From assembly GCF_016903815.1 (NCBI RefSeq), contig NZ_CP069973.1: a DNA stretch of 64,000 nucleotides; one strand, 5' to 3'. Below, piece by piece: positions 62,415-63,416 of this stretch. The notes below the pieces were generated by a model that was given only the letters and a program-made list of their open reading frames with translations, made no database searches and was not told where the DNA came from. Position 1 is the stretch's first letter; each line of letters begins with the position of its first letter. This stretch comes from Escherichia coli. GTDB lineage: Bacteria > Pseudomonadota > Gammaproteobacteria > Enterobacterales > Enterobacteriaceae. A program made the translations under genes and the position numbers.

Positions 62415-63416
62415 ATGAGTAAAGTTGGTATTAATGGTTTTGGTCGTATCGGTCGACTGGTGTTGCGTCGATTACTTGAAGTCAAAAGCAACATAGACAT
62501 TGTTGCTATTAATGATCTCACTTCCCCAAAAATTCTCGCCTACCTGTTGAAACATGATTCAAACTACGGACCGTTCCCCTGGAGCGTTGATTTTACGGAA
62601 GATTCACTTATCGTTGATGGAAAAAGTATCGCGGTTTACGCCGAAAAAGAGGCTAAAAATATTCCGTGGAAAGCGAAAGGCGCAGAAATCATTGTCGAAT
62701 GTACTGGCTTTTATACCTCCGCCGAGAAATCGCAGGCGCATCTTGATGCTGGTGCGAAGAAGGTGTTGATTTCCGCCCCTGCCGGTGAAATGAAAACCAT
62801 CGTTTATAACGTCAATGACGACACACTGGATGGCAACGACACCATTGTTTCCGTGGCGTCATGCACCACTAATTGTCTTGCACCGATGGCCAAAGCCTTG
62901 CACGACAGTTTCGGAATAGAAGTCGGCACGATGACGACCATTCATGCCTATACCGGCACTCAGTCACTGGTGGATGGCCCGCGTGGTAAAGATCTACGCG
63001 CTTCACGTGCAGCGGCAGAAAATATCATTCCCCACACTACGGGGGCGGCAAAAGCCATTGGTCTGGTGATCCCAGAACTGAGCGGCAAACTGAAAGGTCA
63101 TGCACAACGCGTACCCGTGAAAACCGGTTCGGTGACTGAACTGGTGTCTATTCTTGGAAAAAAAGTGACTGCCGAAGAGGTGAACAACGCGCTTAAAAAC
63201 GCGACAAACAATAACGAGTCATTTGGTTATACCGATGAAGAAATAGTCTCTTCCGATATCATTGGCAGCCATTTCGGTTCGGTGTTTGATGCCACGCAAA
63301 CCGAAATTACCGCCGTGGGCGATTTACAACTGGTGAAAACGGTCGCCTGGTACGATAACGAATATGGCTTCGTCACGCAGCTTATTCGCACCCTCGAAAA
63401 ATTCGCTAAACTCTGA
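62415..63416 (+). CDS. gapC: Glyceraldehyde-3-phosphate dehydrogenase C (intact)
   Basis: 333 aa; NAD motif INGFGRIGR; catalytic SCTTNCLAP; uninterrupted reading frame. Confidence 0.9.

Follow-up and report, generated by a model that had tools for sequence, protein, structure and literature searches.

An intact gapC allele in Escherichia coli and its probable role as an auxiliary glyceraldehyde-3-phosphate dehydrogenase

The gene gapC (b4493) is annotated as a pseudogene in the K-12 reference genome NC_000913.3, and the MG1655 record annotated by PGAP flags it as 'frameshifted; internal stop'. A copy of gapC that reads open from start to stop in another strain raises the question of whether it encodes a working second glyceraldehyde-3-phosphate dehydrogenase (GAPDH), and of whether such a copy sets the strain apart. 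Here we consider this question for a window of 64,000 nucleotides of Escherichia coli DNA (contig NZ_CP069973.1, assembly GCF_016903815.1). The first description of gapC is that of Hidalgo et al. 1996, as cited in PMC10614358, a paper that employs the gene as an E. coli qPCR marker and whose reference list includes the intact GapC of O157:H7 (UniProt P58072); PMC5610209 and PMC3080795 mention gapC incidentally only. We propose that the window carries the intact ancestral gapC allele and that this allele very likely encodes a working auxiliary GAPDH of the NAD-dependent, phosphorylating type I class, which would be expressed conditionally.

An intact orthologue of the K-12 pseudogene

In the window, gapC is an uninterrupted frame on the + strand running from ATG to TGA (Table 1), and the chance of 333 random codons staying open is about 1e-7. 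The identical protein is annotated as an intact 'gap' product (WP_000048645.1) in NZ_CP023820, a genome 100% identical to the window. A first-pass annotation had described this frame, with its NAD-binding and catalytic Cys motifs, and had stated that the K-12 gene is a pseudogene; the list of open reading frames and a residue check agree with the former, and the reference annotations together with the two lesions described below bear out the latter.

The surroundings of the gene are those of K-12. The order trg-hokB-cybB-gapC-aldA is the same in K-12 and in the window's 100% match, and the neighbours comprise trg, hokB/sokB, ydcA, RydC, the divergent upstream gene cybB and the convergent downstream gene aldA. 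The window gene shares 96.2% DNA identity with the K-12 copy, and a base-by-base alignment places nearly all of the 39 differences between them at third codon positions. The window gene is the orthologue of K-12 gapC.

Two of the differences are the lesions that inactivate the K-12 gene. The first, A115T, converts Lys39 from AAA to TAA, and the window retains an A at 62529. The second is the loss of one A from a run of seven, which shifts the frame. Alignment to the K-12 gapC region, the check that the first-pass annotation had put forward, finds the window free of both. Besides these lesions, K-12 has Gly18 where the window has Arg18. The K-12 pseudogene is just three changes (R18G, K39* and loss of the A) away from the closest of the intact alleles that we sampled, and because the distance is so small, the decay of gapC in K-12 must be recent.

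Table 1. Positions of gapC, its sequence features and neighbouring elements in the window
Feature	Position	Strand	Description and basis
gapC CDS	62415-63416	+	333 codons and a TGA stop; predicted GAPDH of type I, NAD-dependent and phosphorylating
Shine-Dalgarno AGGAG	62404-62408	+	6 nt upstream of the ATG; read from the sequence; kept in 21/21 sampled loci
cybB-gapC divergent spacer	62263-62414	+	152 nt, predicted to hold the gapC promoter; 143/152 (94%) identical to K-12
gapC codon 39	62529-62531	+	AAA (Lys) in the window, TAA in K-12; alignment and allele-specific 35-mer probes
A7 homopolymer	63158-63164	+	Codons 248-250 (Gly-Lys-Lys), in frame; A6 in K-12; alignment and allele table
gapC-aldA hairpin	63424-63447		9-bp, GC-rich, between the stop codons of the convergent genes gapC and aldA; RNA fold; conserved in sampled loci
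hokB/sokB locus	60911-61206		Type I toxin-antitoxin locus
sok antitoxin	60911-61062	+	Rfam, 111 bits
hokB ORF	61057-61206	+	49 aa
RydC small RNA	61622-61685	+	RF00505, 92.5 bits; just past the cybB stop codon, as in K-12
cybB	61696-62262	-	Longest ORF 188 aa from an upstream ATG; RefSeq annotates 176 aa (531 nt)
STnc490 Hfq-binding small RNA	49834-49957	-	RF01405, full-length match, 146 bits

The 12 additional codons of the longest cybB frame are probably untranslated.

Identity and predicted chemistry of the GapC protein

The gapC protein scores 446.2 bits against the NCBIfam model for type I GAPDH, TIGR01534 (cutoff 367.2), with residues 3-325 aligned to positions 1-330 of the 330-position model. 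Its N-terminal NAD-binding Rossmann domain (PF00044, Gp_dh_N) spans residues 3-102 with an E-value of 9e-36, and its C-terminal catalytic domain (PF02800, Gp_dh_C) spans residues 155-313 with an E-value of 4e-58. The GFGRIG sequence at residues 8-13 provides the GxGxxG NAD-binding motif (G8, G10 and G13) and is accompanied by Asp34. Both members of the catalytic pair are present as well, Cys150 within SCTTNC and His177.

The best structural match is PDB 7c5f, with its sister entries, to which the window protein aligns over its full length with 330/333 identities. The 7c5f protein is the "EcGAPDH1" of Zhang et al., Biomolecules 2021 (PMC8615399). That paper never uses the name gapC, and it is the sequence match reported here that links EcGAPDH1 to gapC. 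In assays that followed NADH formation at 340 nm, the purified EcGAPDH1 had a KM of 0.73 mM for G3P; C150 and H177 were found to be essential for its activity, and crystal structures were obtained with NAD, G3P, the thioacyl intermediate and 1,3-BPG (PMC8615399). Apart from the 19-residue N-terminal tag of the PDB construct, the two proteins differ at three positions, where the window has I29 for V, N262 for Q and N265 for T. These differences are conservative and of a surface or polymorphic kind, and all three residues are natural polymorphisms among intact E. coli gapC alleles. The functional residues are retained throughout. Specifically, the NAD-binding residues named in PMC8615399 (R11, I12, D34, K78 and S120), the catalytic C150 and H177, and the residues of the Ps/new-Pi phosphate sites (T180, T182 and R232; T209 and G210) are identical in the window protein, which also keeps T151.

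Based on this correspondence, we propose that the window protein would carry out the NAD-dependent, phosphorylating oxidation of G3P that has been shown in vitro for EcGAPDH1; the activity itself is taken from the literature on that 99%-identical protein. In the proposed mechanism, Cys150 would attack glyceraldehyde-3-phosphate to form a thiohemiacetal, from which hydride transfer to NAD+ would be aided by His177. Attack of phosphate on the resulting thioacyl intermediate would then release 1,3-bisphosphoglycerate.

Comparison with the other GAPDH-superfamily proteins of E. coli helps to place GapC. The housekeeping enzyme GapA (b1779) belongs to the same fold family and has the same Cys-His pair and NAD-binding motif, with a length of 331 residues against 333 for the gapC protein. 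K-12 GapA and the window protein are, however, only 47% identical, and the GapA-type NCBIfam model PRK15425 gives gapC 302.4 bits, below its cutoff of 662, which leaves the protein outside that group. By sequence, gapC is a distant paralogue of gapA and not a recent duplicate of it.

It could be argued that a protein so far from GapA has drifted in function, whether toward erythrose-4-phosphate in the manner of Epd (GapB), toward an arsenate-linked reaction or toward a purely moonlighting role. E. coli itself offers a precedent for a GAPDH paralogue with a changed substrate in Epd, the erythrose-4-phosphate dehydrogenase of gamma-proteobacteria, which is encoded in the same genome. Yet the gapC protein passes the general type I GAPDH model and falls far under the cutoffs of the specialised ones. 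It scores 279.9 against PRK13535 (cutoff 539) and 277.4 against TIGR01532 (cutoff 530.55), and so is not a member of the Epd families; nor is it a member of the ArsJ-associated GAPDH family NF033735, against which it scores 307.3 bits (cutoff 450). The genes next to gapC are cybB and aldA, with arsJ absent from those positions. The 99%-identical EcGAPDH1, moreover, oxidises G3P with NAD+ and was crystallised along the course of that reaction. We therefore consider a drifted function highly improbable and retain the assignment of GapC as a phosphorylating GAPDH.

Distribution, selection and natural loss of gapC

Of 5426 complete E. coli genomes, 5417 carry the gapC locus. The two K-12 lesions were followed across this set with probes of 34 and 35 nt, each centred on one lesion so that every 28-base seed word must span the allele. 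The K-12 stop allele (TAA at codon 39) occurs in 1154/5426 genomes (21%) and the Lys allele (AAA) in at least 3711/5426, while the K-12 A6 frameshift allele occurs in 1049/5426. Together the two codon-39 probes account for 4865 of the 5417 genomes. The roughly 550 that match neither are explained by synonymous SNPs within the probe, and all sampled haplotypes of this kind carry AAA.

A sample of loci, made up of 19 taken down the identity ranking plus the 100% match and K-12, gives a consistent picture. All 18 full-length sampled loci without the K-12 stop, the 100% match included, are annotated as intact with 333 aa; one further locus has the stop only, and another has lost the 3' part of gapC to IS1A. 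Of the 19 intact sequences, the sampled ones and that of the window, 16 have the A7 run; the state of this run was read from the sampled sequences, so that the count of intact runs is indirect, and A6 was counted by probe. We had also tried the length of the match, 1200 as opposed to 1201 bases, as a sign of the frameshift and rejected it: H4 and H36 match over 1200 bases and yet have intact genes, the missing base lying in the loop of the hairpin beyond gapC. In this loop (window 63433-63438) the window has A6 and L019 and L020 have A5, an indel outside the gene.

These counts bear on whether the open frame is genuine. The K-12 frameshift sits in exactly the A7 homopolymer, homopolymers are error-prone on some platforms, and a miscounted run hiding a frameshift would make the apparent intactness an artefact of sequencing or assembly. 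Against this, A7 and the Lys codon are the usual states in the surveys just described, the exact window protein is found on at least 1000 public contigs, and at least 8 complete genomes of human isolates, assembled independently, are 100% identical over 24 kb that include the gene. Because these independent assemblies agree and A7 is usual in intact sequences, we regard an artefact as very unlikely, to the point of being negligible. Several genomes carry an additional IS150 within window positions 40000-64000 but are otherwise 100% identical there; they match in two pieces, spanning about 25.4 kb as opposed to 24.0 kb.

The first-pass annotation had implied that an intact gapC is unusual, and this does not hold. 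With the K-12 stop in about a fifth of genomes and every full-length sampled locus lacking it intact, an intact gapC is the majority state of the species. It is not peculiar to the present strain, and it has already been described: gapC has been reported as 'Intact in environmental isolates' (PMC2949598), and the literature also gives the gene as truncated in laboratory strains. The particular allele of the window is a minority one, matched at 99% identity or more over 62300-63500 in only 106 of 5417 genomes. The aldA protein encoded next to it (WP_000115969.1) also occurs in a strain with a gapC that is only 96.9% identical, and this combination of a common aldA and a divergent gapC hints at a recombination mosaic at the locus. 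Records labelled as plasmids account for five of the 5430 gapC matches and for two gapA matches; these records are probably mislabelled or else large replicons derived from the chromosome.

Among 17 distinct intact alleles there are 84 segregating sites, 73 of them in the third position of a codon; dS averages 0.096 and dN 0.0037, for a dN/dS of about 0.04, with the window allele separated from the other intact alleles by a dS of 0.05-0.20. Intact gapC alleles are under strong purifying selection.

Loss of gapC is itself widespread outside the laboratory. Carriers of the K-12 lesions have been isolated from animals (pigs, chickens and a mouse), from humans, and from beach water, seawater and marine sediment, and since the lesions are so widespread in wild isolates, K-12 probably inherited its pseudogene rather than acquiring the lesions in culture. 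One seawater isolate, B19374 (NZ_CP142915, sampled locus L011, gapC at 216-1217 of that locus), carries the K39* stop with the A7 run intact. The existence of this stop-only isolate, together with the greater frequency of the stop (1154 genomes against 1049 for the frameshift), suggests that the nonsense mutation came first and that the frameshift followed later within its lineage, an order that rests on probe counts and not on a tree. We propose that the K-12 lesions quite probably represent a natural, two-step loss and not a product of domestication, one that has spread through a large wild lineage to about one fifth of complete genomes while the gene in the rest has remained under strong purifying selection. 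The spread of the lesions in the wild is a minor correction to the literature summary, which implies laboratory domestication.

An independent route of loss is seen in a raw-milk isolate (NZ_CP144926), where the 3' part of gapC, together with the 3' end of aldA, has given way to IS1A (positions 1616-3321 of sampled locus L021). The same locus has an extra Hok-family toxin gene adjoining hokB.

Expression signals and a conditional role beside GapA

The ribosome-binding sequence of gapC is conserved, and the most likely site of the promoter is the spacer between cybB and gapC, from which gapC would be transcribed under particular conditions. A scan of this spacer (62263-62414) for the sigma-70 consensus gave no convincing site; the sole match, at 62220-62249, lies inside cybB and does not exceed chance expectation. 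Downstream, the hairpin between gapC and aldA is considerably more stable than shuffled sequence on either strand (-18.5 kcal/mol, z -4.2 on the + strand; -24.3 kcal/mol, z -4.9 on the - strand). Its tail, CUCUUUC, fails the T-tract rule and, without a proper U-tract, the hairpin is not listed by the terminator scan. It is possibly a shared terminator or a stabiliser of 3' ends. The GC3 of gapC, 0.48, would be unexpected in a gene expressed at a very high level.

Evidence that gapC is transcribed, and that its promoter is active, comes from the literature. Genes regulated in carbon- and energy-limited growth of K-12 include the gapC_1 fragment, and inactivation of rpoS lowers transcription of gapC-1/gapC-2 (PMC4512719, PMC2759082). 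A gapC transcript has been measured in EPEC (PMC6333774), and the gapC promoter has been found to be activated in an environment-specific manner (PMC2949598). In this light, the first-pass suggestion that the present strain may express a second GAPDH is a reasonable one.

The requirement for such an enzyme must be considered alongside GapA. gapA was found in 5425 of 5426 complete E. coli genomes and is at least 99% identical in 5424 of those 5425, whereas most gapC alleles differ by 1-5%. Loss of gapA was never seen, whereas about one genome in five has an inactivated gapC. The universality and extreme conservation of GapA make gapC dispensable for glycolysis, and because some 21% of genomes do without gapC in the presence of a universal gapA, any role of gapC must be conditional.

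The same observations could be taken to mean that gapC is cryptic here, open in sequence yet effectively silent, contributing no GAPDH activity and heading toward the decay seen in K-12. Loss is evidently tolerated, through the stop in 1154/5426 genomes and through IS1 elsewhere, GapA is always at hand, and the spacer lacks a consensus sigma-70 promoter in our scan. Long silence is nevertheless incompatible with a dN/dS of about 0.04 over alleles separated by a dS of 0.05-0.20. The K-12 copy, only three changes away from its closest intact sampled relative, indicates decay that is recent and not general, and promoter activity and transcripts have been reported in the studies cited above. We consider a silent gapC unlikely.

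We instead favour a working GapC that serves as an auxiliary isoenzyme beside GapA. Expression and a physiological role in the present strain are what we infer, with stationary phase, carbon limitation or life outside the host as the probable conditions under which GapC would be made; studies of K-12 and of environmental isolates indicate carbon limitation or the stationary phase, dependence on RpoS, and fresh water.

For gapC, then, K-12 is the exception and not the reference state, and the value of the present finding lies mainly in correct annotation. Metabolic models and gene-essentiality inferences derived from K-12, in which "E. coli has one GAPDH", are not automatically valid for most natural isolates, the present one included. 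In strains with an intact gapC, a gapA knockout or a GapA-targeted inhibitor might be partially bypassed if gapC is induced. The division of the species into intact and lost alleles, about 78% and 21%, respectively, offers a natural split in which to study the poorly defined role of GapC. If the two-step loss is indeed natural, gapC would be a clean natural experiment for identifying the niche in which a second GAPDH matters.
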